DNA of 64,000 nucleotides from Mariniblastus sp. (GCA_965224765.1 CBDDAC010000029.1:488039-552038); one strand, 5' to 3'; positions 22,251-45,925 are shown, numbered from the stretch's first letter. Translations and numbers: made by a program. The notes: generated from the sequence alone by a model not told the origin.

Positions 22251-22742
22251 ATGAACTCACGAGACGCCATCAAAAACACAATCAATACTGCAGATATGGT
22301 CTGTGGCGCTTATCTGGGAGACCTGTCTGACGAAGAGATGATGAAGCGACCTCATCCCGGTTGCAATCACGTCAACTGGCAAATCGGACATCTCGTTGTG
22401 GCTGATAATGAAATGGCCAATGGGTGTTTCCCAGGTACTTTGGCAGTGCTTCCAGAGGGATTTGCGGACAAGTATTCCAAGGAATCTGTCGGCAACGATG
22501 ACCCCAGCGCGTTTTGCAGCAAAGATGAATTGATGGGGCTGTTAAAGATCCAGCGAGAAGCAATCTTTGCCAAACTTGAGCAACTCAACGACGATGACTT
22601 GGACCAGCCAGCCCCAGAAAAAATGCAAGGTTATGCACCAACCGTTGGGGCGGCAATGAACATGATCGGAAGTCATTGGCTCATGCACGCCGGTCAGTGG
22701 GTAGTCCTTCGCCGCGAATTGGGTCGAGATATCGTGATCTAG
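22251..22742 (+). CDS. DinB/YfiT-like four-helix-bundle family protein
   Basis: 163 aa with His-containing helices (NWQIGHLVVADNEM, IGSHWLMHAGQW), typical of the DinB_2 family. Confidence 0.55.
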   Translation: MNSRDAIKNTINTADMVCGAYLGDLSDEEMMKRPHPGCNHVNWQIGHLVVADNEMANGCFPGTLAVLPEGFADKYSKESVGNDDPSAFCSKDELMGLLKIQREAIFAKLEQLNDDDLDQPAPEKMQGYAPTVGAAMNMIGSHWLMHAGQWVVLRRELGRDIVI

Positions 22743-23030
22743 TCCAAGTTGGACTTACCTATAGCGTCACCTCGTCGTTGTTTCCAAGACAAAACGACGA
22801 AAATACCGCCGTGTCTAAACTAAACGCGCTCTAGTGGTTCGACAGAGCTGATTTGACCAGTTTCCGTGGGTGCCATGCTTCACGCTTGCGTGAGCATGCT
22901 CGAGCAAGCGCAAGGCATGGCACCCACCAGCTCAGGTTGGTTGGACCCTAGGTCAAGTTGAACACGCTCTATTTCCGCAGTTCGCTTTTTGGGGCGGTCG
23001 AGGCTCATGCCGAGACATTTGTCCATGCGT
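22741..23030. repeat. Repeat family B copy (arm X plus core), with a family-A-like tail module
   Basis: The arm agtccaagttggacttacctatagcgtcacctcg...ctaaactaaacgcg is followed by the core ctagtggttcgacagagctgatttgaccag. Next comes the near-perfect palindrome ggtgccatgcttcacgcttgcgtgagcatg, then gcggtcgaggctcatgccgagacatttgtcc, which resembles the family A module. Confidence 0.8.
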
Positions 23031-23175
23031 GAATCACTCTCACTAGTAGACCTGGAGAGAGTCGGGCCCGCATTGATTCATTCCTTGTCAAAACGATACC
23101 GACCCACCGGTACGACCCATGGCGTCCACCCGATACAATACTTGGGTTACTGTGTGTTCCGGAATTCGAAAGTCG

Positions 23176-24672
23176 ATGAGTTCAGAATTCGTTTGTCGTT
23201 TTTGCTCTGCGAAGCTCCCCGCTTATGTCGCCAACGACACATGCCCCGAATGTGGCTGCTCGATTGACTTGCCTGGCAACAATCCTCCCGCCGAAACGGC
23301 GTCGGAACAGGCAACCATCCAGCCAGGGAGCCATCCGAAACCTTCTAAGACGGGCAGTACTAATGATTTGGTTGGAAGCGATTTTGGTGACTATCGTTTG
23401 CTTGAAGAAATCGCTCGCGGCGGAATGGGAGTCGTCTTTCGTGCCCAACAAAAGAGCCTTGATCGTTTTGTCGCGTTGAAAATGATTCTGGAAGGCTCAC
23501 TTGCCAGTCAGGTCGAAATTGATCGTTTCAAAATCGAAGCTCAGGCGGCTGCAAATCTCGAACATCCCGGCATCGTCCAAGTATTTGAAATTGGCGAGAT
23601 CGATGGAAGGCATTTCTTCTCGATGGCACTTGTTGAGGGTCAAAGTCTGGCAGACCAAATCAGCAGGGGCCCAATCGAGTCGATCGAGGCAGCGGAATTG
23701 TTGCTTAAGGTCGTCGATGCCATGGACTATGCACACCAGCGAGGCATCGTTCATCGTGACCTCAAACCTGCCAACGTTTTGTTGAATAACCAAGGCGAGC
23801 CGCGTGTAACGGATTTCGGATTGGCCAAGCGACCGGGGCGAGATCGCGAGCTGACGCTAACGGGACAGATGCTTGGCACTCCCAGCTACATGGCACCCGA
23901 ACAGGCAGGCGGCAAGGAAATCACCCCTGCAACAGATATCTACGGATTAGGCGCAATTCTTTATGCGATGCTCACTGGCAAAGCTCCATTCGAAGGCACT
24001 ACCGTCGTTGAAACGTTGACGCAGGTGATCGAGCAAGAGCCGGTTCCTCTTCGCCAGACGATCTCAACGATTCCATTGGATCTCGAGACCATATGTTTGA
24101 AATGTTTGGAAAAGGATCCGGCGGAGCGATTTGAGTCTGCTCAGGTGTTGAGAGAAGAGCTGCAACGTTTTATTGATGGCGAGGAGATCGCATCCAGACC
24201 ACTTAGTGCTCTTGGTAAGGTCATGCGTTGGCGTCGCGTGATCGCTCGAAACAAAGACGTTCGCTTGCAGTCGGCAACCAAAATCATGGGATTCCCTTTG
24301 GTGGATATTGCATTTGGCCGAGACCGAGAAAAGGGCGAGGAGTTCGGTCATGCCAAAGGAGTGATTGCCCTTGGTGATCGAGCAACGGGAATTGTTGCCT
24401 ATGGTGGATTTGCCCGCGGGGTTTTTGCTCTTGGGTTGTATGCGGTAGGGGGCGTGGCCAGTGGACTGTTTGCCGTTGGCGTTGTGACCGCGGGGATGCT
24501 TTCCGTGGGGGTCTTCTCGACGGGTGGAATATCCATTGGGTATACAGCCTTTGGTTTGATCGCGATCGGCTATTGGTCTTTGGGAATGGTGGCGCTGGGA
24601 GCGAAGGCCTTGGGACCGATTAGTTGGAGCTTGGCCAAAACTGCGATGAAAACAATCCGTCGAATCGTTTGA
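23176..24672 (+). CDS. Ser/Thr protein kinase with an N-terminal zinc ribbon and C-terminal glycine-zipper membrane repeats
   Basis: N-terminal CRFC...CPEC. Hanks kinase motifs GDYRLLEEIARGGMGVVFRA, ALK, HRDLKPANVLL, DFGLA and GTPSYMAPE. The C-terminal roughly 100 aa carry seven or more tandem G-x-x-A-x-G-x-x-A/G repeats (GVIALGDRATGIVAYGGFARGVFALGLYAVGGVASGLFAVGVV...). ORF 23119..24672. Confidence 0.8.
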   Translation: MSSEFVCRFCSAKLPAYVANDTCPECGCSIDLPGNNPPAETASEQATIQPGSHPKPSKTGSTNDLVGSDFGDYRLLEEIARGGMGVVFRAQQKSLDRFVALKMILEGSLASQVEIDRFKIEAQAAANLEHPGIVQVFEIGEIDGRHFFSMALVEGQSLADQISRGPIESIEAAELLLKVVDAMDYAHQRGIVHRDLKPANVLLNNQGEPRVTDFGLAKRPGRDRELTLTGQMLGTPSYMAPEQAGGKEITPATDIYGLGAILYAMLTGKAPFEGTTVVETLTQVIEQEPVPLRQTISTIPLDLETICLKCLEKDPAERFESAQVLREELQRFIDGEEIASRPLSALGKVMRWRRVIARNKDVRLQSATKIMGFPLVDIAFGRDREKGEEFGHAKGVIALGDRATGIVAYGGFARGVFALGLYAVGGVASGLFAVGVVTAGMLSVGVFSTGGISIGYTAFGLIAIGYWSLGMVALGAKALGPISWSLAKTAMKTIRRIV

Positions 24673-24722
24673 CTTGTGCAATTTTTGCTCGGTCAAATTA
24701 GGTTTTGCTTGTCAGAAAGTGA

Positions 24723-25487
24723 TTGGTCTATTTGATGTTTGGGTGGTTTAAAAGACGACGTCGACGAAAGATTCTGGCACAGCCTTGGCCGGAATCTTGG
24801 GGATTGCATTTCAATCGAAACGTCCGGCTGAGTTGGAACCTGAATTCGACGGAGGTGAAAAAGCTCCAAAGCTGCACCAAAATATTCGTTGCCGAGAAAC
24901 ACTGGGAAGGATGCGAAGGCCTTGAGCTAACCGAAGAAATGAAAGTCACCATTGCTGGGCAAGCTTGCTTGATGCTCTTGGGTGTCGAGGATTACTACTT
25001 TGACAATGTGAAAACGGTCCTTGTTTATCCACAGATTTTCAGCCGTAGTACAACTGATGGAGTCAGCGCGAATCAGGTTGAACATCGTTCTGGCGAAGCC
25101 TGGCAGGGAGGTCCCATCGTGTTGTCTTGGCGCGACGCACTGATCGGCGGACGAAATTACGATGATGGCAGAAACGTGGTTATCCACGAGTTCGCTCATG
25201 CACTCGACGGGCTGGATGGCGAGATGGGCGGAAATGTAATGTTCGACGATGCAGCGACGACGGCAGATTGGGAGCGTGTTGCCGATCGCGAGTTTTCAAA
25301 TTTGGTATCTGCCAAAGAAGGCGGATATCGAACACTTCTTGATCACTATGGTGCGACCAACCGGGCGGAGTTCTTTGCCGTCTCCACAGAGACCTTCTTT
25401 GAATTGCCGCGAGAACTGGAGCGAGAGCACAATGAATTGTTTCAACTGCTAAGAAAGTACTATCGTGTCGATCCAACCGATTGGTAG
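24723..25487 (+). CDS. MtfA-like zinc-dependent peptidase (peptidase M90 family)
   Basis: A HEFAH zinc-binding motif in a roughly 250-aa protein, with the conserved flanking pattern of MtfA (...VVIHEFAHALD...EFFAV(S/T)...). Confidence 0.65.
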   Translation: MVYLMFGWFKRRRRRKILAQPWPESWGLHFNRNVRLSWNLNSTEVKKLQSCTKIFVAEKHWEGCEGLELTEEMKVTIAGQACLMLLGVEDYYFDNVKTVLVYPQIFSRSTTDGVSANQVEHRSGEAWQGGPIVLSWRDALIGGRNYDDGRNVVIHEFAHALDGLDGEMGGNVMFDDAATTADWERVADREFSNLVSAKEGGYRTLLDHYGATNRAEFFAVSTETFFELPRELEREHNELFQLLRKYYRVDPTDW

Positions 25488-25533
25488 GCGTTTACCGGTG
25501 CCGGTAAAACGTTTGATTGCCTGAACAGCGCGG

Positions 25534-28500
25534 CTAGTGGGTCGCGCCATCATCTTCGGGAGCTTCTTCCTCTTCACTTGCCATCTTATCCATGAGCCGC
25601 TGGTAGTTGGCTTCCGTGGCTTTTGAGGCCCGCACAAAGCTCTCGGCTTGCGGGTTGGTTTCAGCCAGTTTGAGAATGGGCTCCATCCAGGTTTGCAGGA
25701 CGCGGAACTGGTTGCGAAGAACGTTGAGGATCACGTTGGGAACTTTATTGACGACTTCGATCTTATGTTCGCTGAGGTGACGAGGCAATTTGGCAATGGT
25801 TTCACCATGTTGTTCATAGGCGATCTTGATGGATTCTAATGTTCCGTTGAACTTGGCCAACTCTCCGACGACTCGCGAGATCTCTCGTAGTGTCACAGCC
25901 TGGAGGCTCTCCGACTCGTTGTCGTCTTTGGCCAGCATGGTCTTCATGCTTTTGTCCAAGGTAGAACTGATTCCATGCAGGCCATCAGAGAAGGTCGTCA
26001 TCTGGGCAATGATTTGACCCAATTGATCATCTCCCCCCGCGGCTCCGAGTACGAGGTTGCGTTTGTAGGTCCGGCAAATATCTTCCCAACGAGCCGCTTG
26101 TTCTTCATCCATCTGTTGGGTCATTTGACGGAACTTCAGCAGGTTGGCTTCCGCACCAGTGGTCAGTGTTTGTGCCTGATTCTCGTAGTGAGACATGATC
26201 AATATCTGTAATTCAGATTCGTTCATGATTGGAACGATCCGCTCTGCGATTTTGTTCATGTCGCGGTAGGAGCCTTGCATCTTGAATGCGGGCTCAGTCC
26301 GATAGTCGTCGGCCTGCGCGGCAGAATCGATGTATTCGCGATTGACTCGTAGAATCACGTCTCGGACAGTCAGCAGTTTTTGCATCACGCCGACAAACTC
26401 ATTGATCTCTTCGATGGAGTAGTTGCCCTCCAACGATTTGGGCGGAGCGTCTGGATGCTGTGCCATCTCAGCGATGGTATAGATATCTTGTCGACTTCGT
26501 GAATTCAGCTTGGCCAACGTAGAGTTGCTGGTCAGGCAGTTTTCCAGGTAACTCAGTTCAAACGCTTCGAGGCTGTCACCAATCACGTCACCGAGATTGT
26601 AGGTGTCAGCACGGTTGGCGAGCATGTCAGGAATCTGGAATTTCTCGCCGCTTTCCGTGTAGGGGTTACCTGCCATGACCACACAGACTTTGCGACCACG
26701 CAGATCGTAGGTTCGGGTGCGACCCCGGAACACGCCTTCGATACGACGTGTTGCATCACAAAGCGAAATGAACTTTTGCAAAAATTCCGGATTGCAGTGT
26801 TGAATATCGTCGAGGTAGATCATGACATTGTCACCCATTTCCAAGGCAAGGTTGAGTTTCTCAACCTCGTCACGTGCGCTGGCGTTGGGGGCTTCGCTCG
26901 GATCCAGTGACATGACACGATGGCCAATCGCCGGACCATTGATCTTGACGAAGGTAATGCCAAGTCGATTGGCGATGTATTCCATTAACGTTGTCTTGCC
27001 GTATCCGGGAGGGGAGATGAGCAGCAAAAGCCCCATCAAGTCGGTTCGTTTGTTCTCTCCCACGACACCAATTTGTTTTGCCAGGTTTGCACCCACCATC
27101 GGCAGGTAGACATCGTTGATCAGTTTGTTGCGGACAAACGATGTCAGGACACGTGGCTTGAATTCATCCAGTCTCAATTCCTGGCGGCGACTATCGGTCA
27201 GGTCCTTTTTGAGGTGGACGAAATTGTTGTAGCGAGGCACCGTTTCATCTTCGAAAAGGCGCAGTCGGTCCATGAACTGGTTGTAATTCAATTGATAGTT
27301 TTGGGCATCGACCAAGGGGTGGTCGCCAAGCAGGCCACTGACAGTAACCACGGGGTTGGCGTCAATGATTTTTGGTTTGCCCCGAGTGGCGTCGGCGAAA
27401 ATTGAAGCTGCCTCGTCGATGATGTCGTCGCTGATCGTAATCTGCTTGTGAGCGAGATACGAACGGATCCAGTCGTTGGCAATCTGATAGCGATCGACTC
27501 CTGACAGTGTTCTAGATTTCAAACTCTGTACAAGTACCCCTTTTGAGTCTTCACGCTTGAGGTGTTTTTCAAAGTCTGCAACCAAGTGAATGGCTGCGGC
27601 GCTGGCGACAAATGTTCTGGCAATCACAAGTTGATCGTACAGGCATTCGCTTGCAGCGGCCGCGTATCGAGATTCTGAAAACGCCGATTCTTCGATGAAT
27701 TCATTGATCAATAATTCGAGCTGCGAAATGTACTTTTCCCGACCGCTGACTGCGCCGAAGAGCTGTTGTGCTTCTGCCATCCCTTTCAGTTTGGCAGCTA
27801 GATTGTTTTTGATTGGCGCATCGAGTTGATTCCAAAAAACGCTGGCTAGCACACGAGCGGATGCCGAGTATTGGAGCAGGTCAAGTTTCTCGGTGAGTTT
27901 ACAAAGACTGCCCAGTATCAGCGTCGCGTCATGGTCATGAACACCCTTGATATATCCTTCAGAATATCGCGGTGCCATGAACTTCTGGACGTGCCCATTG
28001 AGTTGAATGCTGTCGAACTGAGCGAGATCTTTTAGTGACGGTTCGCTCGTCATTGACTCTTGCAAAAGCAAATAGGCGAGATACTCCGCGCGGTACACCT
28101 CGCGGTTCTCCGAGACGATGGCTTGATCCCAGACATCCCGCGATGTTTCGAACAGCTCGTCTTCAATTTTTTCAAAGTAATTGGTTCCACTCAAATGAAA
28201 CCAGGTGTCGCCTTCTTTGAGAACGGTTGTCAAATCCAGTTGTTGAATGTTGACCGAAAATTTGTGTTCACCAAACTTGATGACATTCTGGCCCTCAACG
28301 TAGAGCTCATTCTTGTCTCGTAGTTGACGAACGGCGTCTTCACGTACGGTCTTGAGACGGCTTTGGATATCATCGACCTTAACCGATTCATCCAGTTCGT
28401 CGAGTTGTTCGACGATATCGCGGACCTTCTCAATCATCAGGTCGGCGGCGAAATAGCTATTGATTTCGTCAACCGTTCCTAAGCCAGCCATACGCGATTG

Positions 28501-30846: not shown

Positions 30847-30986
30847 GGACCAAAATTGGATTGAGTTGGGAATGGGTAAACGAAAGAGGCCAGTTTTACT
30901 GACCCGTCAGCGAATGACTGACGTCTCAATCGAAGGAAACGTCAGTCGTCAAGAGTTGCACCTCGAGAGTTACAACCAACTGACCA

Positions 30987-33014: not shown

Positions 33015-33647
33015 CTAGTTACTCTCCAGTTTCGCCAATTCAACGAGGCATACATCTTTTTCGCGATCATAAGCCACGATCATAACGACATTGCCTTTTT
33101 GCAATGTCTGACCGGATTCATTTCTCGCATTTAGAACCATCAAAGGTCCATCAATATTAATTTCAATCTCGCCATATGTTTGGTCGAGTTTCAACGTGTG
33201 CACGACCGCAGTTTGCCCAATCAAATCATTTCGATCAAACTGGCGATCCACCGAACGAAAAACTCGCGCGATCGGAGCAACACAAATTTTGGTTAACAAT
33301 AGGCTGACGGTTCCGCAAGGGAATAACCACATCGCGGTCGTCAACAGGTCGAACTCCGGATTCAAGTAGTGATTGGTACACACTGTTGAGATCCAGAAGA
33401 ACAACGAGAAAAACGACAGGATTAACATCAATGGAACTTGCCCAATATGGAAAAAGGCAAACATCGTTCCGAGGAAACCTTCTGCTAAATGTAGGTCCGC
33501 ATCTCCGTCCATGTCGGCATCGACATCAAAAGCATCGATTCCAACTGCACCAAAGATCACGAATAACCAATACAATGCGACTAAGCCTAACAACGAGGTT
33601 GCCAGTATGTTCGCCGAGTTGGTAATTTCGATCAGGAATTCGCCCAT
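33015..33647 (-). CDS. NfeD-family membrane protein (YuaF/YqiJ-like)
   Basis: 210 aa with several N-terminal TM helices and a C-terminal OB-fold-like region (GQTAVVHTLKLDQTYGEIEINIDGPLMVLNARNESGQTLQKGNVVMIV). It sits immediately upstream of flotillin in the canonical nfeD-floT arrangement. Confidence 0.75.
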   Translation of the reverse strand: MGEFLIEITNSANILATSLLGLVALYWLFVIFGAVGIDAFDVDADMDGDADLHLAEGFLGTMFAFFHIGQVPLMLILSFFSLFFWISTVCTNHYLNPEFDLLTTAMWLFPCGTVSLLLTKICVAPIARVFRSVDRQFDRNDLIGQTAVVHTLKLDQTYGEIEINIDGPLMVLNARNESGQTLQKGNVVMIVAYDREKDVCLVELAKLESN

Positions 33648-34002
33648 CGTTTACTCATTAAGTTATGGAGGGAAGTTTTGCGGTGGTTTGATCAACCGTT
33701 ATCACGCGCAATCCGAGCGCAAAAATAGCTTAACGTTATCTGGCCGCACAAAGAATGATGCTCAATTGCTCCCAATTCAACTGAGCAGACAAGGTAAATG
33801 CCATTCACATCGATGTCGAGAATTTCAGGGTCACGAAGATAGTCAACTTGATGTTCTGCATTTTGAACGGTATTCGCTGCAGGGTCATGAATATTGCCGA
33901 GAATCCCTTTCGGTGCGTTCAAATCCTGGTTTTTGCCCCTTCATATGATCCTTAGGCTTTGGCGAAATCGCAGTTAACGGGTGGCATGATCGAGGCTCCC
34001 GT

Positions 34003-34036
34003 GCAAAAAAAAACGCCCAGGCGAATAGCCTGAGCG
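34003..34036 (-). terminator. Rho-independent terminator downstream of the TlpA-like gene
   Basis: On the minus strand the hairpin cgctcaggc-tattc-gcctgggcg is followed by nine T (plus strand tgcaaaaaaaaacgcccaggcgaatagcctgagcg). It begins about 30 nt after the stop at 34065. Confidence 0.7.
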
Positions 34037-34064
34037 TGAGAAAAACGACATTGGCGATGAAGGA

Positions 34065-35312
34065 CTATTTGTCCTTCTTTTTTGCCTTGGGTTTGTCTTC
34101 GTCTTTGTCTTCGTCATCGTGGGTGATTTCAACTTCGTGGCCCATCTCAGCGAGAAGCGTTGTGACGGCGTTGTCCATTTTGGCGCCTCGAACACCTTTG
34201 TAGCGAATGACACCATCAGCATCGAGAACATAAATCGTCGGCCAACCTTGCACACCCCATTTGGTAGAGATGGGTCCGCCGGTCCCGTCTGGACCATTCC
34301 AGAAGCTTCGCCAAGTAATATTCTTCTCTTTGACAACCTTCTGAATTTCTTCCAGGTCTGGATCACTATTTACGCCGATCAGTGCAAAAGGCTTGTCTGC
34401 CAATTGTTTTACGAGCGACCGCTCGTGTGGGAACATCGCCCGGCAAGGAGGTCACCAATCGCCCCAGAAGTCGATTACGACAACTTTTCCACGATAGTCA
34501 CTCAGCTTGAACTCGACTTCATCAAGATCGGCGCCTTCAATATCGGGAGCAACTTTGCCGATTTGCAGATATCGCATTTCAAACAATTTGCTCTCGGCCA
34601 TTTCACCAAGAGTGCCGCGTCCAGCATCAACGTCAGAGTAGTTTTCCACGATGGACTCAAAAAGTTGTTCGACTTCCGCATCGATGGCTTTTGCAGACCA
34701 TTTTGTCATGAACGCTTCGCCACCGTCGCCGATTGATTCCAGCATTCGTTTCTGACGTCGTTCAGAAGCATCATGAAAACTAGAGAGGCTCGATAGCATT
34801 GAGGCCAGGCTCATGGTGGCATAGCCTTTGACTTTGTCGTGTGGACTGACTTCGATAAGCTTGCGGAGCAATGCTTCCGAATCAGGGCCTGGTTTTCTTG
34901 CGAATGATCTTGCAACGGCGGCAAGTTCCTCCGAGTCGTTGAACTCTGACATGAGGGTTTCAACTGCAGAGTCGGCGATGTCACCTTGGGAGCTTTCAAT
35001 AACCCAAACCAGCATCTGGAGGGCCTCTGCCTCTTCGGCACCTTCAACGAGCCCAAGAACTTTTGTGCCCAGCTCTTCCGTCGCGTCCGCGAACTCCAAG
35101 TTGATGGCTTCCTTCTCTTCATTCGTTGCGTTGCGAGTTTCTTTTCGCTGCTTGCTACGCAATTTTGAGAATGCCCGTTTTGCATCGCGGAATTGCTCTG
35201 CGATTGTAGGTTCTTCTTCCTGCTTTGAGTCAGCCTTTTCATCGTCTTGCGCGATCAAAATGGGGGCCATCAAAAGCAGTAACATTAGCGACAATAGCCA
35301 ACGCAGTTTCAT
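34065..35312 (-). CDS. TlpA/ResA-like secreted thiol:disulfide oxidoreductase, candidate selenoprotein with in-frame TGA at 34452..34454 (W-U-P-P-C)
   Basis: ORFs 34452..35312 and 34065..34436 are in the same frame and are separated only by TGA plus five codons. Read through, they give ...DYRGKVVVIDFWGDW-[TGA]-PPCRAMFPHERSLVKQLADKPFALIGVNSDPD...GWPTIYVLDADGVIRY, a textbook TlpA fold with TGA at the first active-site Cys. An N-terminal signal peptide and a helical domain precede it. Confidence 0.6.
34411..34426 (-). promoter_or_regulatory. SECIS-like hairpin downstream of the in-frame UGA
   Basis: The mRNA reads ACGAGC-GGUC-GCUCGU, a 6-bp perfect stem with a GGUC apical loop. Its 5' base lies 26 nt after UGA, so the loop is at +35 to +38. 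The loop resembles the E. coli fdhF SECIS apical loop. Confidence 0.4.
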
Positions 35313-35558
35313 CGTGTTACTCCAATAGAGGTGTTTGGGTTAAGGGGTTGTGTAGCATACCAGCTTTCTTGCCAGATGAGTGATGTCGAAGCGCTGAATC
35401 GATCACAAAAAGTAGCTGAGCGTACAAGCCCCGACGTTGATACTAAAATCTTCTGCTTCACTTTATTGCAAATTAGGCGGGACAAGTTCATCAACATAAA
35501 AAAAGCGTTGATATCCAGAGATAGCAACGCCTTGTTCAGGGTTTGAATGTCCGACGAA

Positions 35559-38500
35559 CTACTGGTTCCAGTCGGGGATTTTTCGGCCAGGAGTCCATGG
35601 TGCACCCGCTTCATCGAGTTGTTCGAACAAGCTCTGGACATCGTCTTCAATCAGCGTCTGCAAGTCTCCAATGACTTCGCGGTATTCTTCGCCCGCAATT
35701 TCGAATTGACGTTGATGGGTACCGGTGGGGCCCGTCAATGAGCCCATCACGCCACCCATCATCGTGCGAATCCGAGACTGAAGACCAGGATATGCCGATT
35801 CGTTGCGCAGCGATTTGGTCGGATCGCCATTGAATTTTTCCATAATATCCATCAAGCGAAGTTCCAACTCGCGAACTTCGTTTACCAGGGTCGGATCCAA
35901 ATCGGGTGTTCGCTCGATGACTCCTTTGATCGAAGCCAGTTGGGATTGAACTTCCTGGGCAACACTTGTTGCTGCAGATACGGCATCGGACAACCCAGCA
36001 GCTTCCGTGGCAAATTCGATGATGGCGCCTCGATCAATTTCGGAATCACCACCAAAGTTGAGTGGTTCGATTTCAAACTCCGTTGCTCCGATCAATTCGG
36101 TGACTTCCCCTTCGACCATCTGAGAGACCTCAATGGTGTAGGTTCCTGGAATTGCCATGGGGCCACCGCGGCGTCCAAATCCTTCAACACTGAAATCCCA
36201 TTGAGTTCGATGAAGCCCCTTGGAGGTGCTTCCAGGAAGTCGACGAACCACGTCGCCAAAAGAATCGCGGATCGTCAAAGTAACCTTCGGACCGATTTCG
36301 CGATCCTCAGCTTTGAGTTCATCCCAGGTAGGGTAGGGGGCGTCGCGACCGGCGGTCGCAGCCTTGCCGTCTTTTGCCGTTCTTTCAGATTTTTTCGACT
36401 TGAGTGAATCCTTCAGATGATAAGTAAAGTTGACTCCAAAGGCCGGATTGGGCGCGGAGAAAAAGTTGGCACCCTGGAATGCTCTACGACCCACCGCAAG
36501 TGGAGCAGATTGCATAAACATCTGGCCCTTCTTGATCGGAAACATCTTGTTAGTCTCCAGCGTTTCCTCGGAAAGCTCGCGAAGTGGTGTGTAGTCATCC
36601 AGAATGTAGAATCCACGTCCGAATGAAGCGAGGACCAAATCGTTTTCACGTGCTTGAATCTCGATATCACGAATGCCGACGGTTGGAAGGCCAGCACTCA
36701 ACTCAATCCATTTCTCGCCACCATTGATTGTAAAGTAGCAACCAAATTCCGTTCCACAGAACATCAGTTTCGGGTTCACGTGATCTTGTTTAATGGTGTA
36801 AACACTTCCACGTTCAGGAAGATCACCCGTGATATCTGTCCACGACTCGCCTCGATCTGTCGACTTGACGATGTAGGGTCGGAAGTCACCACGCTTATGG
36901 TTGTTGACTGCGACATAAACCGTATCCGCGTCGTGAAGATCGGCTTCGATATCGTTGATGTAACCAAACTCAGGAACTTCCAGCGAACCAAATTTTCCGA
37001 TCGCTTGCCAGGTGCCGCCACCATCTTGAGTGACTTGCACCATGCCATCGTCGGTACCCGCATAAATCAAGCCTTCTTCGAATGGAGATTCGCTGAGGCT
37101 AACGATTGTTCCATAGAGTGATGTGGACGCATTTTTGGCAACGGAATCAACTCCCCATACCCGACCCATCACTTTCAGCGTGTTGCGGTCGATGTTCCGT
37201 GAAAGGTCTTCACTAATGGGCGACCAGTTGTCACCGCGATCGTCGCTTTGGAAAAGGATCTGAGAGCCGTAGTAAATCCTCTTGCTGTCATGAGGTGAAA
37301 TCAAAAGGGCTGAATCCCAGTTCCAACGAAGGGTGGGACCGCCTTTTTCTGGCTGTGGTTTGATGTCGACTCGGGTTTGGGTTCGGCGATCAAATCGAAT
37401 CAATCCACCATACTGCCACTGAGAATACACGGTGTTGGGATCGTCAGGATCAACCGCAGGATCAAAGCCATCACCAAAGACGGTAATGAACCAGTCGCTA
37501 TTTCGAATCCCGTGAATGTTGGTTGTTTGAGAAGGTCCACCCTGTGTCGCGTTGTCCTGAGTCCCGCCATAAACGAAATAGAATGGCAAGTCGTTACTGA
37601 CTGCGACCTTGTAGAACTGGGTGATCGGAAGGTTTGCTTTGAAATCGTACGTTTTCCCGCGATCCCAAGTTTCATAAAGGCCACCATCGCATCCAATGAT
37701 CAGGTGGTCCTGGTCGGCGGGATCGATGACCAACGCGTGGTTGTCAACATGTTTGTCCGCTTCACCGAGTGATTCGAAATTTTGGCCGCCATCCTCACTG
37801 ACCATCATGTAAGTATCCAGCGAATAGATGCGATCTAACTTGTGAGGACATGCAACAATTTCCTGGTAGTACTGTGGGCTTCCAGAAACGTAATCGCCCA
37901 TTCGAGACCAAGTTTCACCTCGGTTAGCACTTCGGTAAAAACCACTTTGACTACCGGTTGCTTCGACGACCGCGTAAAGAATTTCGGGATTGACCGGCGA
38001 AATGTCCATCCCGATTCGGCCTTTGTCACCGCCTGGCAATCCGCGGTTGATTTTCCGCCAGGTGGTACCGCCGTCAGTTGATTTGTGAATACCCGATTCT
38101 GGCCCACCATCAATTAGAACCCAGGTGTGTCTTCTTCGCTGATAAGACGAAGCGTACATGATGTTTGGATTTGTGGGATCCAAGTGAACTTCGTTAATTC
38201 CGGTATCTTTACTGATGTCGAGAACTTTGCTCCAGGTCGAACCCCCATCGATCGTTTTGTAAAGTCCTCGGTCGCCACCTTCGCTCCAGAGCGGACCTTG
38301 TGCCGCAACGAACACAATGTTGCTATCGTCGGGATGAACAACGATTTTGCCGATGTGTTCACTGTTTTCCAAGCCGACCCGCTTAAAGCTTTGTCCGCCA
38401 TCAGTGGATTTGTACAGTCCATCGCCATAGCCGACGGAACGCTGTGAGTTATTTTCTCCTGTACCGACCCAGATCGTAAAACGATCGTTGGGGTCAATCG

Positions 38501-38816
38501 CCAGGCAACCGATTGAGTAGCTGCCATGATTGTCAAAAATTGGTTTCCAGGTCACACCCGCATTTTCAGTTTTCCAAACCCCGCCGCTGCATGCCGCGAT
38601 GTACCAGGTGCTTGGCTTGATGGGATCGATGACAATGTCGCCGATTCGGCCAGACATTAATGCCGGCCCGATATTTCGAAACGAAAGCGCGGAGACAAGA
38701 CCAGAATTGAGTCCTGGTGTTGGGTCCTCCGAAGTGTCAGTGTCCTGAGCATTTCCCAGATTGGGTGAAAGACAAAATGCAATTGCGAGAACGCAAAGCC
38801 AAAGTTGTCGCGTCAT
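35559..38816 (-). CDS. Secreted sortilin/VPS10-type BNR-repeat beta-propeller protein (often annotated glycosyl hydrolase, BNR repeat)
   Basis: 1085 aa with a signal peptide and many S-x-D-x-G-x-T/S-W Asp-box motifs (STDGGQSF, TIDGGSTWSKV, STDGGTTWRKI, SEDGGQNF, TQDGGGTWQAI, STDRGESWTDI, INGGEKWIEL). Confidence 0.7.
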   Translation of the reverse strand: MTRQLWLCVLAIAFCLSPNLGNAQDTDTSEDPTPGLNSGLVSALSFRNIGPALMSGRIGDIVIDPIKPSTWYIAACSGGVWKTENAGVTWKPIFDNHGSYSIGCLAIDPNDRFTIWVGTGENNSQRSVGYGDGLYKSTDGGQSFKRVGLENSEHIGKIVVHPDDSNIVFVAAQGPLWSEGGDRGLYKTIDGGSTWSKVLDISKDTGINEVHLDPTNPNIMYASSYQRRRHTWVLIDGGPESGIHKSTDGGTTWRKINRGLPGGDKGRIGMDISPVNPEILYAVVEATGSQSGFYRSANRGETWSRMGDYVSGSPQYYQEIVACPHKLDRIYSLDTYMMVSEDGGQNFESLGEADKHVDNHALVIDPADQDHLIIGCDGGLYETWDRGKTYDFKANLPITQFYKVAVSNDLPFYFVYGGTQDNATQGGPSQTTNIHGIRNSDWFITVFGDGFDPAVDPDDPNTVYSQWQYGGLIRFDRRTQTRVDIKPQPEKGGPTLRWNWDSALLISPHDSKRIYYGSQILFQSDDRGDNWSPISEDLSRNIDRNTLKVMGRVWGVDSVAKNASTSLYGTIVSLSESPFEEGLIYAGTDDGMVQVTQDGGGTWQAIGKFGSLEVPEFGYINDIEADLHDADTVYVAVNNHKRGDFRPYIVKSTDRGESWTDITGDLPERGSVYTIKQDHVNPKLMFCGTEFGCYFTINGGEKWIELSAGLPTVGIRDIEIQARENDLVLASFGRGFYILDDYTPLRELSEETLETNKMFPIKKGQMFMQSAPLAVGRRAFQGANFFSAPNPAFGVNFTYHLKDSLKSKKSERTAKDGKAATAGRDAPYPTWDELKAEDREIGPKVTLTIRDSFGDVVRRLPGSTSKGLHRTQWDFSVEGFGRRGGPMAIPGTYTIEVSQMVEGEVTELIGATEFEIEPLNFGGDSEIDRGAIIEFATEAAGLSDAVSAATSVAQEVQSQLASIKGVIERTPDLDPTLVNEVRELELRLMDIMEKFNGDPTKSLRNESAYPGLQSRIRTMMGGVMGSLTGPTGTHQRQFEIAGEEYREVIGDLQTLIEDDVQSLFEQLDEAGAPWTPGRKIPDWNQ

Positions 38817-38955
38817 TGTGTAATTCCTGAAGCGGGTCGTTGTGTTGCAGACAAGACTTCAGTTTAATTACAGAGCGGATTGGCGGATAGCATCGAGCCA
38901 TTTTGTACGTATAAGAACAGATACTGTATTAACGATTACTCAACTTGGCTCCAAT

Positions 38956-39561
38956 ATGCCCAGCAAATATCTGAACACCGACGATTCTGGCGTTTCACGG
39001 TGCTGGTGGTGCGGAAGCGATCCGCTTTACGCTGCCTACCACGATTCGGAGTGGGGTTATCCAGTTGGTGACGACAATCGACTATTCGAAAAGATCTGTC
39101 TGGAAGGTTTTCAAGCGGGGCTGAGTTGGATCACCATCCTCAAAAAGCGAGAGAACTTTCGGGCCGGTTTTGCTGGATTTGATATCCAACGCGTGGCGAA
39201 ATTTGGCAAACGAGATGTAAATCGGTTGCTGAAAGATGCCGGGATCGTGAGGCATCGCGGCAAGATCGAGTCAACGATTAACAATGCGCAGCTGGCGATC
39301 AAGTTGATTGAGGAACAGGAATCCCTCGCCAAGTTCTTTTGGAGCTATGAACCTGCCCGGCAACGGAAATTTGACGCCAAACGAGCTGTGACAGATGAAT
39401 CAAAGCAATTAAGCAAGGATTTGAAAAAACGAGGATGGTCGTTTGTCGGGCCAACGACCTGCTATGCGTTCATGCAAGCGATGGGGATGGTCAATGATCA
39501 CCACCCCGGTTGTTTTTGCTTTGAAAAAGCCCAATCGCTACGCAAGAAATTTAAAGGTTAG
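38956..39561 (+). CDS. tag: DNA-3-methyladenine glycosylase I
   Basis: The Tag zinc-site pattern CWWCGSDPLYAAYHDSEWGYPVGDDNRLFEKICLEGFQAGLSWITIL is conserved, with C-terminal HHPGCF. ORF 38842..39561, with the start at the internal MPSKY. Confidence 0.8.
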   Translation: MPSKYLNTDDSGVSRCWWCGSDPLYAAYHDSEWGYPVGDDNRLFEKICLEGFQAGLSWITILKKRENFRAGFAGFDIQRVAKFGKRDVNRLLKDAGIVRHRGKIESTINNAQLAIKLIEEQESLAKFFWSYEPARQRKFDAKRAVTDESKQLSKDLKKRGWSFVGPTTCYAFMQAMGMVNDHHPGCFCFEKAQSLRKKFKG

Positions 39562-39665
39562 TGGTTCGTCAGAGTTGATTTGACCCGTTTGAGTGGGTGC
39601 CATGCTTCACGCTTGCGTGAGCATGCCTGCGCAATCGCAAGGCGTGGCACCTTCAGTTCAGGCCC
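39558..39665. repeat. Repeat family B core copy
   Basis: tagtggttcgtcagagttgatttgacccgtttgagtgggtgccatgcttcacgcttgcgtgagcatgcctgcgcaa, directly after the tag stop codon. Confidence 0.8.
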
Positions 39666-39739
39666 GCCAGGGAGGAGACGCAAGGTTCCTCGATTACAAG
39701 ATATCTGGAAATAACTGATTGGCTGGTAAACGGATGCCA

Positions 39740-39925
39740 TCGCTCTGCGATTAGGTTTTGGTTGGGAATGTTTTACCCCAGACTAAAAAGTCTGGGGCTA
39801 CGAGAAATAGCCGCTCCGCGGCAAATGCAGTTTGGGTGGGCGCTTTGTGAGTGGGTGCCATATGAGTGGGTGCCATGCTTCACGCTCGCGTGAGCATGCC
39901 TGCGCAAGGATGGTGTCTTCAGTTT
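39740..39925. repeat. Repeat families C (ccccagact-aaa-agtctgggg hairpin module) and B (duplicated gagtgggtgccat core)
   Basis: ttaccccagactaaaaagtctggggctacgagaaatagccgctccgcggcaaatgca matches 54430-54490 almost exactly. Then comes gtgggtgccatatgagtgggtgccatgcttcacgctcgcgtgagcatgcctgcgcaagg. Confidence 0.8.
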
Positions 39926-39956
39926 GCCGGCAAATCAGCTATTCGTTAGTTTGGGG

Positions 39957-42308
39957 CTATTCGTCAATCTCGGCTTGTAACTCTTTTAACATCCGTTCGA
40001 TGCGACGTTTTTCCAGTCCATCGACCATTCCAACAGCATCCTCGTATAGACTTTTTGCCTGCTCTAGAAACCTTTTGTCCTTAAAGGTTCGATTGGGCGC
40101 ACCGATGTCACGCCAGATTTCGGCAACGGTCAGAAGGCTGGAAGGAGATGTGAAATCGGTTGCCGAACGCTGTTCAACCAATCTCAAAAGCGGTTTGTCA
40201 GATGACTTGGTCCAGAGTTGCAGCGCCGTTTCGACCTCGTCCTTGATCAAGAATTCGTACATTCCCCGGTCCTCATGAGCCTTGGGATTGTCGGGTTGTT
40301 CTTCGATCATTTTCAATGCGCGATCGTTTGCCGTTTGTACTTTTTTCATGCTGCCGATCAAGCGACCTTTTTCCCGGTATCGATCGGCCTGGGCCCGGTC
40401 CGTCTTGCGAACAATGTCTAGCGCCCAGTCCACCATGCCCTCGGCCTCTTTGAATCGCTGCTCCACCACTGCCTGCTCAACAAGTTTATCCAGGTCGCGA
40501 CGGAACGTGAACGAATTGTTGCTGGTCGTATTTCCAGCAGTTTCCTTGACCTTGTCTTTCATCAAACGCCAAAAATCCATTTCGTAACGTCGATCCAACT
40601 CTTTGTAGGCGTTGACGGCCATTTCAAGATCGCCGAGCCGAACACCAATTTCAGCAGCCTCTAAATACATGGTGTATTGAGTTGTCGGCTGACTGGATTC
40701 GGATTGTGCGTCACGACTTAGCAATTGAGCCAAGGCCTTGGCCCGACTTCGAGCTCGCGACATTTCTGATTCCCGTACATTTCCGTTTTGAGAGCCAAGA
40801 AGTCTCGGATTTGCTTCCGCATCGCGGAATTGCCGATCGTAGAGTACCAATAACTCTTCCCGGGCAGCTGCCCATTCATTTTTCGTAGGAGGAGATGCTT
40901 TAACGACGTTTGGTGTTTCGACGGCGTTTTCCGCTGGCACCGCACCGGGCTTGACCGGGGCGCCTTTTGAATCTGTCGACGAGATTGTGACTAAACCCAA
41001 CGCGTCATGAGTGAGGGCGCCGATGACTCCCATCGTAGAAATATTTGACGAGCGTTGGTAACGTCCGTGCATCCCTACCAACGGCAACCCGACACTGTTG
41101 CGAATTCGTGTGATCGGACGAATCATCTTGGGAAACCATTCACTCGTGTATTGATCGTTGGTATCCAGTCGGTCACGAAGGATTTTCATGTAGACTAGCC
41201 GAACGCACTTCAACGGATGCTCTGTGGAAACTTCCATTGCTCCCACGGCGTAACCAGGCTTGGCAAGCAGGAGGGTTCGCTGCTTGCTTTGAATTCGACC
41301 GTACTCTTGCCCAAAATGGATTCCGTTTACGCTCAGTTGCAGTGGAGCCATCGTGCGAATGGTGCCGTCTTGGGCAGGAGACAAGGCAAGTCCGACCAGT
41401 AGGTGTTTTCCTGACAACCATTGATACTCGGAATTACCTCCCTGAGTTCCGGAAGCGTCATACCGATGGGTTTTCTGATCAGCGACGGACTTGCCAACAA
41501 GTGCCAGTAGGTTTTGCGCGACGGTGTCAGGTGCTGGATAGAGGTGAAGACTGGCCCGCCTCCATTGGAAGTCGGGACGAGATGGGTCGCTGGCGTTTTC
41601 GTTGGCGCTCTTGTTTGTTTTTTCAGCAGAGTCAGGTGATTTCTGATTCAGTTTGGCAGGACGATTCTTGGCAGGTCTGTTTTTTGAAGGTTGAAATTTT
41701 GGTGCAGTTTCTGTTTTCGTTTTTGGCTCTAAATCGATATTGCTAACAAGTCGATCGTCGCTCGATGTTTGTTTCTTGCCAAATCCAGGAAGCACCCCAA
41801 ACTGAATCAAAGCTGCGCAGAGCGCGACCGCGGCCAGACCTCCTCCAAACCAGCCAACTAGGCTCATCGCCATCTGGTTCTTTTCACGTTTTTGCCGTTT
41901 TTCGCGCAACGAAGGGTCCGCAGTTACCGCGACTGAACGGGTCGACGAGGGCGATGAATTGGGAGAGCCAAGATCCATTGCAGAAATCACAGGAGTTGTT
42001 TTAGTCAGCTGAGGTTGGGACTCAGCTTGACGCAATTGTTCGTCGTAGTCCTGTTTTTGTTCGGGTACCAAAAGGCAGCGGCGTGCAATCGCCAATTCGC
42101 TGAGGATTTTTTGGGAAAGCTCTCCTCGTACCCCACTTTGATAAGTTCTTACGTGGGCCATTTGTCGATCTGCTGCCGTAGAAATGACATCGGCGTCGGA
42201 TTCAAACAAGTCCAAACCAAGCAAGCGGTAGTGATTCACAGGACGTTGCGCCTCGCGAATTCCCAACCATTTCAAATAAGGGTCAAAGTCATCCATCAGA
42301 AGAGTCAA
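39957..42308 (-). CDS. Large membrane protein with an N-terminal J-domain-like motif
   Basis: The N-terminus DPYLKWLGIREAQRPVNHYRLLGL is a DnaJ-like helix II/III signature, but without a clear HPD. Mid-protein TM is MAMSLVGWFGGGLAAVALCAALIQF. The C-terminal roughly 450 aa are helical. Confidence 0.45.
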   Translation of the reverse strand: MTLLMDDFDPYLKWLGIREAQRPVNHYRLLGLDLFESDADVISTAADRQMAHVRTYQSGVRGELSQKILSELAIARRCLLVPEQKQDYDEQLRQAESQPQLTKTTPVISAMDLGSPNSSPSSTRSVAVTADPSLREKRQKREKNQMAMSLVGWFGGGLAAVALCAALIQFGVLPGFGKKQTSSDDRLVSNIDLEPKTKTETAPKFQPSKNRPAKNRPAKLNQKSPDSAEKTNKSANENASDPSRPDFQWRRASLHLYPAPDTVAQNLLALVGKSVADQKTHRYDASGTQGGNSEYQWLSGKHLLVGLALSPAQDGTIRTMAPLQLSVNGIHFGQEYGRIQSKQRTLLLAKPGYAVGAMEVSTEHPLKCVRLVYMKILRDRLDTNDQYTSEWFPKMIRPITRIRNSVGLPLVGMHGRYQRSSNISTMGVIGALTHDALGLVTISSTDSKGAPVKPGAVPAENAVETPNVVKASPPTKNEWAAAREELLVLYDRQFRDAEANPRLLGSQNGNVRESEMSRARSRAKALAQLLSRDAQSESSQPTTQYTMYLEAAEIGVRLGDLEMAVNAYKELDRRYEMDFWRLMKDKVKETAGNTTSNNSFTFRRDLDKLVEQAVVEQRFKEAEGMVDWALDIVRKTDRAQADRYREKGRLIGSMKKVQTANDRALKMIEEQPDNPKAHEDRGMYEFLIKDEVETALQLWTKSSDKPLLRLVEQRSATDFTSPSSLLTVAEIWRDIGAPNRTFKDKRFLEQAKSLYEDAVGMVDGLEKRRIERMLKELQAEIDE

Positions 42309-42496
42309 CAGGATCGAGACAGGTGGAAGTAAGTTGCTATTCTATGAGCGATTCGGTCAAAGTCAAAATGGCAACGGAATTGTAACAAGCTGACACAAAT
42401 CCCTAGTGCAGCATCACGATTTAAGGCTGTGTTCGATAAATTTCTGATGAAGGATTCAAACTGACTTTAGCATTGCGGATTCAGGAAACTTCGTTC

Positions 42497-43222
42497 CTAT
42501 TTGTCCGAAGTCCGCTCCAAAATTGAGTGAGTTTCAACCGATAGGGTTGGTTGAGCGATATTGTTGCCTTGAATCACATTGTTGCCCTGAAGTACGGTAC
42601 CACCTTGAGTGGGTTGAACAATCGCTGGCGACGAAATGATTGTTTGTGGAGAAAAGCCTTGGACTGATGGCTGAATGATCTGGCCGTATTGTGGCTGAAC
42701 AATTTGACCATACTGTGGCTGAACATTTTGACCGTACTGTGGCTGAACAATTTGACCGTACTGCGGTTGAATGGTGTTTTGAGCCGGAACATATGTGGAG
42801 CCATCATAATAAGCTGGGCCGCTGTAATAGGTTTGCGGCTGGACATAAACATTGCCTTGTCGATAGACGGGAGGGCTGATTTGGCCGATTTGAACTCCTT
42901 GTCCGCCACCGAATTGCATTCCGATATTCGAACCGCCAAAGTGGGCACCACGCCCGCCTCCGAAATGCATGCCGATATTCTGTCCGCCAAATCTTGCGCC
43001 CTGTCCACCGCCAAAGTGCATGCCAAAATTCGACGATCCAAATCTCGCCCCCTGTCCGCCGCCAAAGTGAACCCCGTTTGCTCCACCTAGCTGAAAGCCC
43101 GTTCCGCCTCCCATGGTTAACCCGTTGGGGCCACCGATGTGAATGGGTCGACGTTGGGCTTCGGCGCCAGAGGAAATGGCGAAAACAATAGCGATGGCGA
43201 GTACTGGGACGATACGAAACAC
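42497..43222 (-). CDS. Secreted Gly/Gln-rich tandem-repeat protein
   Basis: Signal peptide MFRIVPVLAIAIVFAISSGAEA. About five 13-aa repeats (HFGGGQGARFGSS, HFGGGQGARFGGQ, HFGGGRGAHFGGS, QFGGGQGVQIGQ), then four 8-aa repeats (QPQYGQIV / QPQYGQNV). Confidence 0.55.
   Translation of the reverse strand: MFRIVPVLAIAIVFAISSGAEAQRRPIHIGGPNGLTMGGGTGFQLGGANGVHFGGGQGARFGSSNFGMHFGGGQGARFGGQNIGMHFGGGRGAHFGGSNIGMQFGGGQGVQIGQISPPVYRQGNVYVQPQTYYSGPAYYDGSTYVPAQNTIQPQYGQIVQPQYGQNVQPQYGQIVQPQYGQIIQPSVQGFSPQTIISSPAIVQPTQGGTVLQGNNVIQGNNIAQPTLSVETHSILERTSDK
42689..43090. repeat. Coding tandem repeats (24-nt and 39-nt periods) inside the Gly/Gln-rich gene
   Basis: ctgtggctgaacaatttgaccatactg-type 24-nt units repeat four times at 42689-42790. 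39-nt units encoding HFGGGQGARFGG repeat at about 42890-43090. Confidence 0.7.
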
Positions 43223-43491
43223 GGTTCACTCCTTAGAATGATATCGGTCTAAACAATTATGCGATTTGGGCCTCAGCTGAATTGTATTGTCAAAGTCTTA
43301 TTGGTCGATAGGTGTGAATTGCTGGCAACCCTTCTGGGATATCAATAATAGCCCCTTCGTGGGCGAAATTTCTCTATTTCTAGAAGGGGCAGTATTTCTT
43401 TGCCCCTTGGATCAATCCACAATTTGGTTTTCATCAGGATCAGCACAGCGTATGATCTCAGTTGCTGATTTCCGTCCCCTGGGTGAAAGCT

Positions 43492-44670
43492 ATGAAAAAT
43501 TCTACAGCACTTCTTTCGTTGATTGTATTCGCAACGATGTCGGCAGGTTTGCTTGCCCAGCGAGCACCCAATGACGCCGACCCGTTTCGTAAGATCAGCA
43601 GAACGATGCAAAGAGCGGTTGATGATGGGAGTGTAGTTGGGCACAGCGTGTTAGTTTATCGCGACGGAGAAGTCATCTACTACAACCAATGGGGGCTGCG
43701 GGACAGAAGGAACGAGTTGGCGATTGAACGCGACACGATTTTCCGAATCTATTCCATGAGCAAGCCGATCACCAGCGTTGCCGTCATGCAGTTGGTCGAG
43801 GCGGAAAAAATTGACTTGGATGAACCGATTTCGACCTACTTGCCAGAACTTGGCAAACTCACTGTGCTCGAAAATGGAAATGAGGTTGAGGCGCGCCGGG
43901 AGATTACCACACGCGATTTGCTCCGTCATACCTCAGGACTGACCTATGGATTCTTTGGCGACACCGAAGTCGATAAAGCTTATCGTCGGAACCTCGTGTT
44001 GATCATGGACAAGAACATCGAGCAGACGGTCAAAAAGCTTGCTTCGATTCCGTTACTTCATCAACCGGGGAAACAATTTCATTACAGTGTATCGACTGAC
44101 GTACTGGGGCGTTTGATCGAAGTCGTAAGCGAAGAACGGTTCGATGACTATTTGCAGAAGAACATTTTCGATCCTTTGGAAATGAATGATACATTCTTTA
44201 CCGTACCCGCAGACAAACAAGACCGGTTTGCCCAAATCTACGAGGAAGCCGAAGGGAAATTGAAACCCAAGAATTCGCTTTCGTCGTATCGCTTTCTCAA
44301 TGCAAACGATTTTGATAGCGGTGGTGGGGGACTTTGCTCGACAATCGACGACTACCTGCAATTCTGCAAAATGCTGCTCGCCGGCGGAACACTGAATGAA
44401 CATCAAATTCTCAAAGAGGAAACGATCACTGAGATGTTCACGAATCAATTGGCAGATGTGGACGTGCGTTTCCGCGATTTCAAATTTGGATTGGGGTTTC
44501 GAATTTTTCCCAAGGGGGATTTTGGTTGGGGCGGCGCGGCTGGAACCCGGTTTTGGGTGAACCCAGAAAAGCAGACGGTGATTTTGTATATGGTTCAGGT
44601 GAGCCCATATGGAAACCGGGATTGGGCGAATCGATTTCGAAGTGCTGTTTACAAACTCATCAAGGATTAG
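43492..44670 (+). CDS. Serine hydrolase of the beta-lactamase/penicillin-binding-protein-like family (class C type)
   Basis: Signal peptide MKNSTALLSLIVFATMSAGLLA. An S-x-x-K motif sits in IYSMSKPITSVAVM, and YSV sits in FHYSVSTDVLG. ORF 43462..44670 begins with TTG. Confidence 0.75.
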   Translation: MKNSTALLSLIVFATMSAGLLAQRAPNDADPFRKISRTMQRAVDDGSVVGHSVLVYRDGEVIYYNQWGLRDRRNELAIERDTIFRIYSMSKPITSVAVMQLVEAEKIDLDEPISTYLPELGKLTVLENGNEVEARREITTRDLLRHTSGLTYGFFGDTEVDKAYRRNLVLIMDKNIEQTVKKLASIPLLHQPGKQFHYSVSTDVLGRLIEVVSEERFDDYLQKNIFDPLEMNDTFFTVPADKQDRFAQIYEEAEGKLKPKNSLSSYRFLNANDFDSGGGGLCSTIDDYLQFCKMLLAGGTLNEHQILKEETITEMFTNQLADVDVRFRDFKFGLGFRIFPKGDFGWGGAAGTRFWVNPEKQTVILYMVQVSPYGNRDWANRFRSAVYKLIKD

Positions 44671-44767
44671 GGCGGGATTGATCGAGAATCTGGCACCGCC
44701 GAGAAAGCAAAAGCAGCGTTTCGGCGGGAGTCTCAACGCCTCCAACTTCCACTTTTAGGACGTCTAG

Positions 44768-44953
44768 TCTAGTGGTTCGTCAGAGCTGATTTGACCAGTT
44801 TAGTGGGTGCCATGCTTCACGCTTGCGTGAGCATGACTTCAGTTCACGTTGGTTGAGCTACTAGACGCGTTTAGTTTAGGTAGGGCGGTATTTGTCGTTT
44901 TGTCTTGGAAACAACGGCGAGGTGACGCTATAGGCAAGTCCAACTTGGACTAA
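44768..44953. repeat. Repeat family B copy (core plus inverted arm X), inverted relative to the 22741 copy
   Basis: The core ctagtggttcgtcagagctgatttgaccagtttagtgggtgccatgcttcacgcttgcgtgagcatg is followed by ctagacgcgtttagtttaggtagggcggtatttgtcgttttgtcttggaaacaacggcgaggtgacgctataggcaagtccaacttggact. That second part is about 90% identical to the reverse complement of 22741-22830. Confidence 0.8.
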
Positions 44954-45336: not shown

Positions 45337-45339
45337 GGA

Positions 45340-45810: not shown

Positions 45811-45925
45811 CGGGGATCTTCCCTGTTAGAAAAAGAAATAAGAGTGCCTGGTTCCCACCGGCCGCGATCGGCCGGTGGGAACCGGCCCTACATCCAGAAA
45901 CATGAATGGGGGCGTGCAACTTGAA

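Follow-up and report, generated by a model that had tools for sequence, protein, structure and literature searches.

In a 64,000-nt window of Mariniblastus sp. DNA, read on one strand, a segment of ~22 kb is bracketed by two clusters of short repeats, at 22.7 and 44.9 kb. The block between them carries genes for a Ser/Thr kinase, an M90 peptidase, a DUF3686-AAA ATPase, redoxin-like proteins, a sortilin/BNR protein, the Tag glycosylase and a beta-lactamase-family hydrolase. At the left border, a DinB-family gene (22251-22742, + strand; Pfam DinB_2) ends with a TAG stop codon (22740-22742) that directly precedes a module termed X (left copy 22743-22830, +, with CTAG bounds at 22739 and 22831), which is followed by a complete core element (22831-22951, +). 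The order is thus CTAG (22739, which holds the DinB stop), X, CTAG (22831), left arm, a doublet of repetitive extragenic palindromic (REP) units, right arm and CTAG (22948). At the right border the order is CTAG-T-CTAG (44764, 44769), left arm, a single REP unit, right arm, CTAG (44861), inverted X and CTAA (44950), i.e., the right core copy (44769-44864, +) has kept both arms and both CTAG ends, its second REP unit is deleted (the remaining unit lies at 44805-44835), and the right X copy (44865-44949, -) is inverted relative to the left one. The CTAA at 44950 contains the stop codon of a 128-aa open reading frame (ORF) of the - strand (ORF128, 44950-45336), and this TAG stop (CTA at 44950-44952 on the + strand) directly precedes X on the ORF's own strand. 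Inside the block, a core-only copy (39559-39680, +; REP doublet 39593-39651, right arm degenerate) begins at the TAG stop of tag, the 3-methyladenine glycosylase gene, and a partial core (39848-39925, +) consists of one REP unit (39868-39898) and a degenerate second arm.

The original prediction had described ~90% identical inverted X copies around the block, cores in the same orientation at both ends, and further cores at 39558 and 39848. All of this was borne out, with coordinates agreeing within a few bases. By BLAST, X (22740-22830, +) matched 44952-44866 (-) with 92.1% identity across 89 nt, the inverted pair was also recovered by a repeat search (62 nt at 95% and 28 nt at 89%), and the 32-nt terminal pattern of X had exactly two matches in the window, where shuffles predict none. 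The core matched in direct orientation, with 95.7% identity over 69 nt (22830-22898 vs 44768-44835) and 89.2% over 93 nt (22832-22924 vs 39559-39651), and its left-arm module, TAGTGGTTCG.CAGAG.TGATTTGACC, was found at 22832, 39559 and 44770, each time on the + strand. The 92% inverted similarity of the two ends is restricted to X and stops at the CTAG border. Past this border the ends share just ~58%, the level at which the two core arms resemble each other.

The arms of the core (~35 nt) are imperfect inverted repeats of each other, and the core is symmetric, with CTAG at both tips. In the window it measures ~95-120 nt and follows the plan CTAG, arm, one or two 31-nt hairpins, arm, CTAG, i.e., a REPIN-like element (REPIN, paired inverted REP units, as described in PMC3116915 and PMC3337134). 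In the complete left copy, the doublet (22866-22927) is made of two inverted 31-nt hairpin units with zero spacer, which are 84% complementary (repeat search and centroid fold). That the core is a nested hairpin of the REP or miniature inverted-repeat transposable element (MITE) type, with ctagtgg/ccactag ends, had been proposed from the sequence, and ctagtgg/c(c)ctag-type inverted ends are indeed present. Folding was strong in one copy of the two: as DNA the left copy forms a strong nested hairpin (-47.6 kcal/mol, z = -5.5), but the right copy folds no better than shuffles (z = -0.9), because its second hairpin arm has been lost. The same plan (CTAGTGGT..., left arm, REP doublet, right arm, ...CCACTAG; ~125 nt) is found in several other metagenome-assembled genomes (MAGs) of Pirellulaceae. 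In ~12 complete copies of these MAGs the element stops at CTAG and its outer flanks are unrelated from copy to copy, so that the core is a self-contained unit ending at CTAG, of which X is not a part. Terminal inverted repeats as in a MITE (CTAGTGGT... / ...CCACTAG) are carried by the core alone and not by X.

The 31-nt hairpin, GGGTGCCATGCTTCACGCTTGCGTGAGCATG, occurs at 22868, 39595, 39868 and 44805, always on the + strand, and a variant with three mismatches lies on the - strand at 5128, 8300 and 15546, within a mosaic repeat of another kind; by chance, no match is expected in either case. With seven copies in 64 kb, every one located between ORFs, the hairpin is a short repeated extragenic palindrome. 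Its foot, GGGTGC, leads into the stem CATGC-T-NCACGC-TT-GCGTGN-GCATG. When the pattern GGGTGCCATGCTNNNCGCTNGCGTGNGCATG was scanned in the GTDB representative genomes, at least 78 loci in at least 19 assemblies were recovered, and all the matches listed were from Planctomycetota (Pirellulaceae, other Pirellulales, Thermoguttaceae, Bythopirellula, Kolteria novifilia and Planctomycetaceae bins). Many of these loci are two inverted units ~25 nt apart, and the doublets of the window (22866-22927 and 39593-39651) are paired in the same manner, as in REPINs. Furthermore, pairing is preserved in all the stem variants (CCACGC/GCGTGG, TCACGC/GCGTGA and TTACGC/GCGTAA).

In three MAGs of different planctomycete families, a gene of ~200 aa lies between inverted copies of the hairpin (L066, 3857-4543; L005, 2760-3450; L004, 2080-2760), the upstream copy in L005 being a partial, variant unit only. 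The L066 and L005 proteins matched the NCBIfam model NF047646, 'REP-associated tyrosine transposase' (RAYT), with 104 and 101 bits (cutoff 80), and HUH and Y motifs are present in both. The L004 gene was recognised by tblastn, with 63-68% identity to the other two. The family counts more than 5,500 relatives, and some of those from Bremerella and Blastopirellula carry the name RAYT at NCBI. REP units of one family thus stand in inverted orientation on both sides of a RAYT gene in L066, L005 and L004, i.e., in other genomes only. The inverted doublets, the RAYT association and the pairing-preserving stem variants together identify the 31-nt unit as a REP sequence of a RAYT system. As the next gene downstream, L066 and L005 share one nucleotidyltransferase-like gene (MLHAVIMAGG.GTRFWP...), a sign that the RAYT position may be conserved and vertically inherited.

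Module X is 86-89 nt long, and has a terminal mini-palindrome with a 7-bp stem (AGTCCAA-G-TTGGACT) and an internal hairpin (CGTCGTTGT...ACAAAACGACG). As read directly from both copies, X lacks terminal inverted repeats, and the two copies match perfectly over 23 nt at most. X was not present in the hairpin-bearing loci listed from related genomes (78 loci, 540 kb), and BLAST against all the loci compared matched L001 alone, which is the same locus. An exact X 20-mer had no match in the GTDB representative genomes and two in the JGI metagenomes, both of them in unrelated coding sequence, and two X patterns (exact 20-24-mers) had no match in viral contigs. No Rfam family matched anywhere in the window at the gathering threshold; at E<=1 the left copy gave chance miRNA-type hairpin matches alone, and no promoter or terminator signal in the window rose above shuffle expectation. 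The flank after the left core (CTAGGTCAAGTTGAAC) matches the outer terminus of X (CTAGTCCAAGTTGGAC) at 13 of 16 positions, which is an oddity. Judged by these comparisons, X is a separate module found in this lineage only, and not an outer arm of the core; the proposal that X and X' are the two outer arms of one X-TIR-palindrome-TIR-X' element (TIR, terminal inverted repeat) was not supported, with X absent from the ~12 MAG copies of the core.

Both junctions could be compared with those of relatives. L082 (Logan SRR25727013, ~78% nucleotide identity to the window) is collinear with the window from 39476 down to 13565 and spans the left junction, where a 99-nt spacer separates DinB from M90, without X, core or kinase. 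L086, from the same sample, is collinear with 40057-49625 and spans the right junction; there the beta-lactamase-like gene and ORF128 converge and overlap in CTAA, where the window has a 280-nt insert. In L088 (DRR453246) the order is sortilin, tag, a 793-aa gene, DUF72, bla, ORF128 and an S8 protease, with spacers of 12-14 nt where the window has repeats. None of X, the core or the hairpin was found in ~110 kb of DNA from these relatives (L082-L088). In addition, two overlapping contigs from an independent metagenome of this organism (L001 and L089; ERZ25083849) yield the DinB-X-core-kinase order of the window, both of them breaking inside the core. Since the relatives are collinear and repeat-free at both junctions, the repeats are recent insertions into spacers, and the block stands in its ancestral order and orientation. 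The L082, L086, L088, L001 and L089 contigs showed the parental arrangement only, with no inverted orientation or recombinant junction. Likewise, the transposase or integrase that a transposon or genomic island would carry was not found in the block, nor was an invertase, the window holds no tRNA, and GC content is flat (0.48-0.52) across both borders. On gene order and composition, the 22-kb block is ordinary chromosomal DNA, neither inverted nor imported.

The insertion points can be placed by the stop codons. CTAG stands at all the module borders (22739, 22831, 22948, 44764, 44769 and 44861), and X and the core start directly after native TAG stops: the stops of DinB, ORF128 and tag are at the same residue position in relatives, which shows that the inserts begin exactly after native stops. 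For DinB, L082 has the identical C-terminus (...GRDIVI*). The ORF128 orthologues also end at the same position, with TAG in L086 and TGA in L087 and L088. At the insertion points, the empty site reads TAG after DinB in L082; in L086 it is the CTAA in which bla and ORF128 overlap, and in L083 the TAG that follows tag. A duplicated TA or CTAG is indistinguishable here from the element termini. An argument that the rarity of CTAG limits the targets was dropped: 81 occurrences in the window match the Markov expectation of 80.8, and fall ~3-fold below the zero-order expectation only.

The most probable interpretation, which we hold with good confidence, is that the two clusters are REPIN/RAYT-type repeats plus a lineage-specific add-on module, inserted in intergenic spacers around a block that is ancestral. 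Each end of the 22-kb interval would then be an independent small cluster of non-autonomous modules that inserted into an intergenic spacer. By analogy with the studied REP/RAYT systems, a REP-associated tyrosine (HUH/Y1) transposase encoded by a single-copy gene may produce the core copies in trans, and would recognise the hairpin on single-stranded DNA. TAG/CTAG would be the preferred insertion target, and each insertion would recreate TAG/CTAG sites, so that modules can stack side by side. Because the core is an inverted repeat with CTAG on both sides, X could land on either side and in either orientation, and one left-side and one right-side landing would give the appearance of inverted arms that bracket a segment. 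The fallback of the original prediction, i.e., that these are simply dispersed REP elements, has thus been upheld and sharpened to a REPIN/RAYT-type family accompanied by a lineage-specific module.

It is improbable that the clusters are instead a single MITE of the form X-arm-palindrome-arm-X', each copy of which has lost a different outer arm. X does adjoin the core in both copies, the X copies are inverted around co-oriented cores, and the 'CTAGTC' left of the right core (44764-44769) is readable as a stump of X. However, no two-armed copy was seen, the window itself has a core-only copy at 39558, and the cores of about a dozen MAG copies end at CTAG with unrelated flanks, X being missing from the 540 kb of hairpin-bearing loci. 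Such an element would also need two independent deletions, each stopping exactly at the CTAG border, and the flank right of the left core resembles the outer end of X and not its inner end. A functional role for X, as a 3'-untranslated region (UTR) RNA element (a stability or termination module) acquired by two unrelated genes, would account for the position of both copies, directly behind a stop codon and in the orientation of the gene upstream, and for the two hairpins in X. Against it, X gave no Rfam match, has no terminator-like T run in the sense orientation, and is absent at the orthologous sites of relatives, and with two copies co-orientation arises by chance half of the time; we find this explanation quite improbable.

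The original prediction had also suggested that the repeats could mediate inversion or deletion of the block, and as a switch or structural polymorphism of this kind, with inverted X or direct cores as the recombination substrates, the locus would offer an inverted repeat of 89 nt at 92% and a direct repeat of 69 nt at 96%. In L083 the kinase has a different neighbour upstream, so that the spacer was a breakpoint in one lineage. The comparisons nevertheless went against the suggestion: orientation is the same as in the repeat-free relatives at both junctions (L082 at the left, L086 and L088 at the right), and the independent metagenome of the same organism gives the same left junction. The longest perfect X-X match, 23 nt, lies near the shortest length that RecA recombines efficiently, as judged from E. 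coli work. No invertase or recombinase gene lies in or beside the block, and its housekeeping-type genes are on both strands, with no orientation-tied promoter logic. A recombining block is therefore very unlikely, and recombination between the X copies, while possible in principle, is unlikely given the shortness of that match and the lack of any recombinant arrangement. Two observations had been named in advance as speaking against such a block, i.e., many copies of the element and no synteny breakpoints at these positions; the absence of breakpoints was found, and the copy number is reached by extrapolation only, from seven hairpin loci in 64 kb and many copies elsewhere. Finally, long terminal inverted repeats and flanking direct repeats resemble the ends of a transposon or island, but a mobile element or genomic island with X as its ends and the cores as att-like direct repeats is extremely unlikely: in repeat-free relatives the genes within and beyond the block are the same and stand in unchanged order, and there is no transposase or integrase, no tRNA and no GC discontinuity.

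Several points weigh against the REPIN/RAYT interpretation with an ancestral block. No RAYT gene lies within the 64-kb window, and a cognate transposase in this organism is assumed. The unpaired foot is GGGTGC, and is not the GTAG or CGTC tag of the super-families of PMC3733652; CGTC follows some copies (those of the family A repeat, see below), though not consistently. L082 and L086 are two contigs from a single sample, and L082 ends at about window position 39476, beside the core site at 39558, so that collinearity over the whole block is pieced together there, although a single contig spans each junction. As to X, two copies are known, which lack terminal inverted repeats and a demonstrable target duplication, and for this reason we infer its mobility solely from two insertions that are absent in relatives. 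A more far-reaching proposal, which we regard as tentative and on balance unlikely, joins two ideas: X may be an undescribed miniature element without terminal inverted repeats that lands precisely after TAG stops or at the CTAG ends of REPINs, and would then be a 'parasite of a parasite', and, separately, the 31-nt REP unit may be kept almost invariant across several Planctomycetota families by a vertically inherited RAYT.

The core shares with the REP/REPIN and RAYT systems of Pseudomonas and E. coli (PMC3116915, PMC3337134, PMC5581495) a short extragenic imperfect palindrome, often in inverted doublets that form a long hairpin, and in three other Planctomycetota genomes the unit flanks a RAYT-family gene in inverted orientation. 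It differs from them in that the foot of the window unit is GGGTGC and not GTAG/CGTC, in the extra inverted arms of ~35 nt, ending in CTAG, that the repeats of the window's family B carry, in the near identity of the 31-nt unit across several Planctomycetota families, and in that the window has no RAYT. Rhodopirellula baltica, of the same phylum and order, is described by Di Nocera et al. (2013, PMC3733652) as having REP families (GTAG-20, GTAG-21 and others) and several tyrosine transposases with flanking repeats, so that multiple REP families coexist there as they do here; its families are GTAG-tagged, unlike the GGGTGC unit. Neither GGCACCC nor GGGTGCC had a match in the supplementary files of that paper, the supplement alone being covered, and to this extent the GGGTGC-footed unit does not appear among the families listed in it. 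In a literature search, the hairpin sequence gave unrelated primer matches alone. The bacterial interspersed mosaic elements (BIMEs) of enterobacteria, which are known to bind IHF and gyrase, are likewise intergenic mosaics of REP units and other short modules, of variable order and orientation (as here in X plus core, the 39.5-kb cluster and family A), but their module sequences are unlike those found here. With MITEs that target TA or CTAG (IS630/Tc1-like or IS5-like derivatives), the core shares terminal inverted repeats and CTAG at both ends; it differs in having a RAYT-type REP doublet at its centre. A matching transposase was not found, terminal inverted repeats are lacking in X, and a target-site duplication is not separable here from the element ends.

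A caution follows for similar loci, i.e., inverted short repeats 22 kb apart mimic the ends of an invertible or mobile segment, and are here probably a by-product of modules that stack at CTAG/TAG beside symmetric REPINs. A REP/RAYT system with a distinctive GGGTGC-footed hairpin is common across Pirellulales and planctomycete lineages near them, which is useful for annotation and for studies of REPIN populations beyond Proteobacteria.

Several further observations concern the genes of the block and the behaviour of the repeats in assemblies. The Ser/Thr kinase gene (23176-24672) starts most likely at the ATG at 23176 (498 aa) and not at 23119. It is absent from the closest relative, L082, and adjoins M90 in L083, which makes the DinB-M90 spacer a hotspot of change in the clade. 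The region 33907-35498 (1.6 kb), with redoxin/AhpC-like ORFs and the earlier selenoprotein candidate, is represented by only ~125 nt in L082 and is present in L083. Short-read contigs ended at or inside repeats at position 1 of L082 (about window position 39476), at the end of L001, at the start of L089 and in several MAG contigs, which suggests that REP elements fragment planctomycete MAG assemblies. In L053 (5437-5810), the REP unit forms a tandem array with a ~65-nt period, and half-unit arrays with a 29-nt period are found in L037 and L073 (Kolteria novifilia); because the 'spacers' of the REP tandem arrays are identical, these are not CRISPR arrays.

Other repeats also populate the window. 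The 'family A' mosaic repeat (4931-5293, 8238-8464 and 15484-15755) is built of modules of ~135 and 114 nt, its copies being 90-99% identical. Its REP variant, CCTCGC...GCGTGG, has one mismatch in the stem and precedes CGTCGTCGAG; the variant units lie at 5128-5158, 8300-8330 and 15546-15576, all on the - strand. A second palindromic family (GGTAACCCGACGCGTCAGCGAGGACG...) is found at 54187-54251 and 54518-54574, and also in L019, L032, L072 and L074. This GGTAACCCGACGCGTCAGCGAGGACG family is common to a Pirellulaceae MAG and bears no relation to the GGGTGC hairpin. A 43-nt repeat with 95% identity lies at 39787-39829 and 54451-54493 and is preceded by an CCCCAGAC/GTCTGGGG hairpin. As its first copy stands between the two 39.5-kb cores, the whole 395-nt spacer between tag and the 783-aa gene is built of repeat modules; in L088 this spacer is 14 nt. 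Finally, a 24-nt tandem repeat of 4-5 units (42668-42787) lies inside a 241-aa ORF (42497-43222), and is thus coding and unrelated to X and the core.

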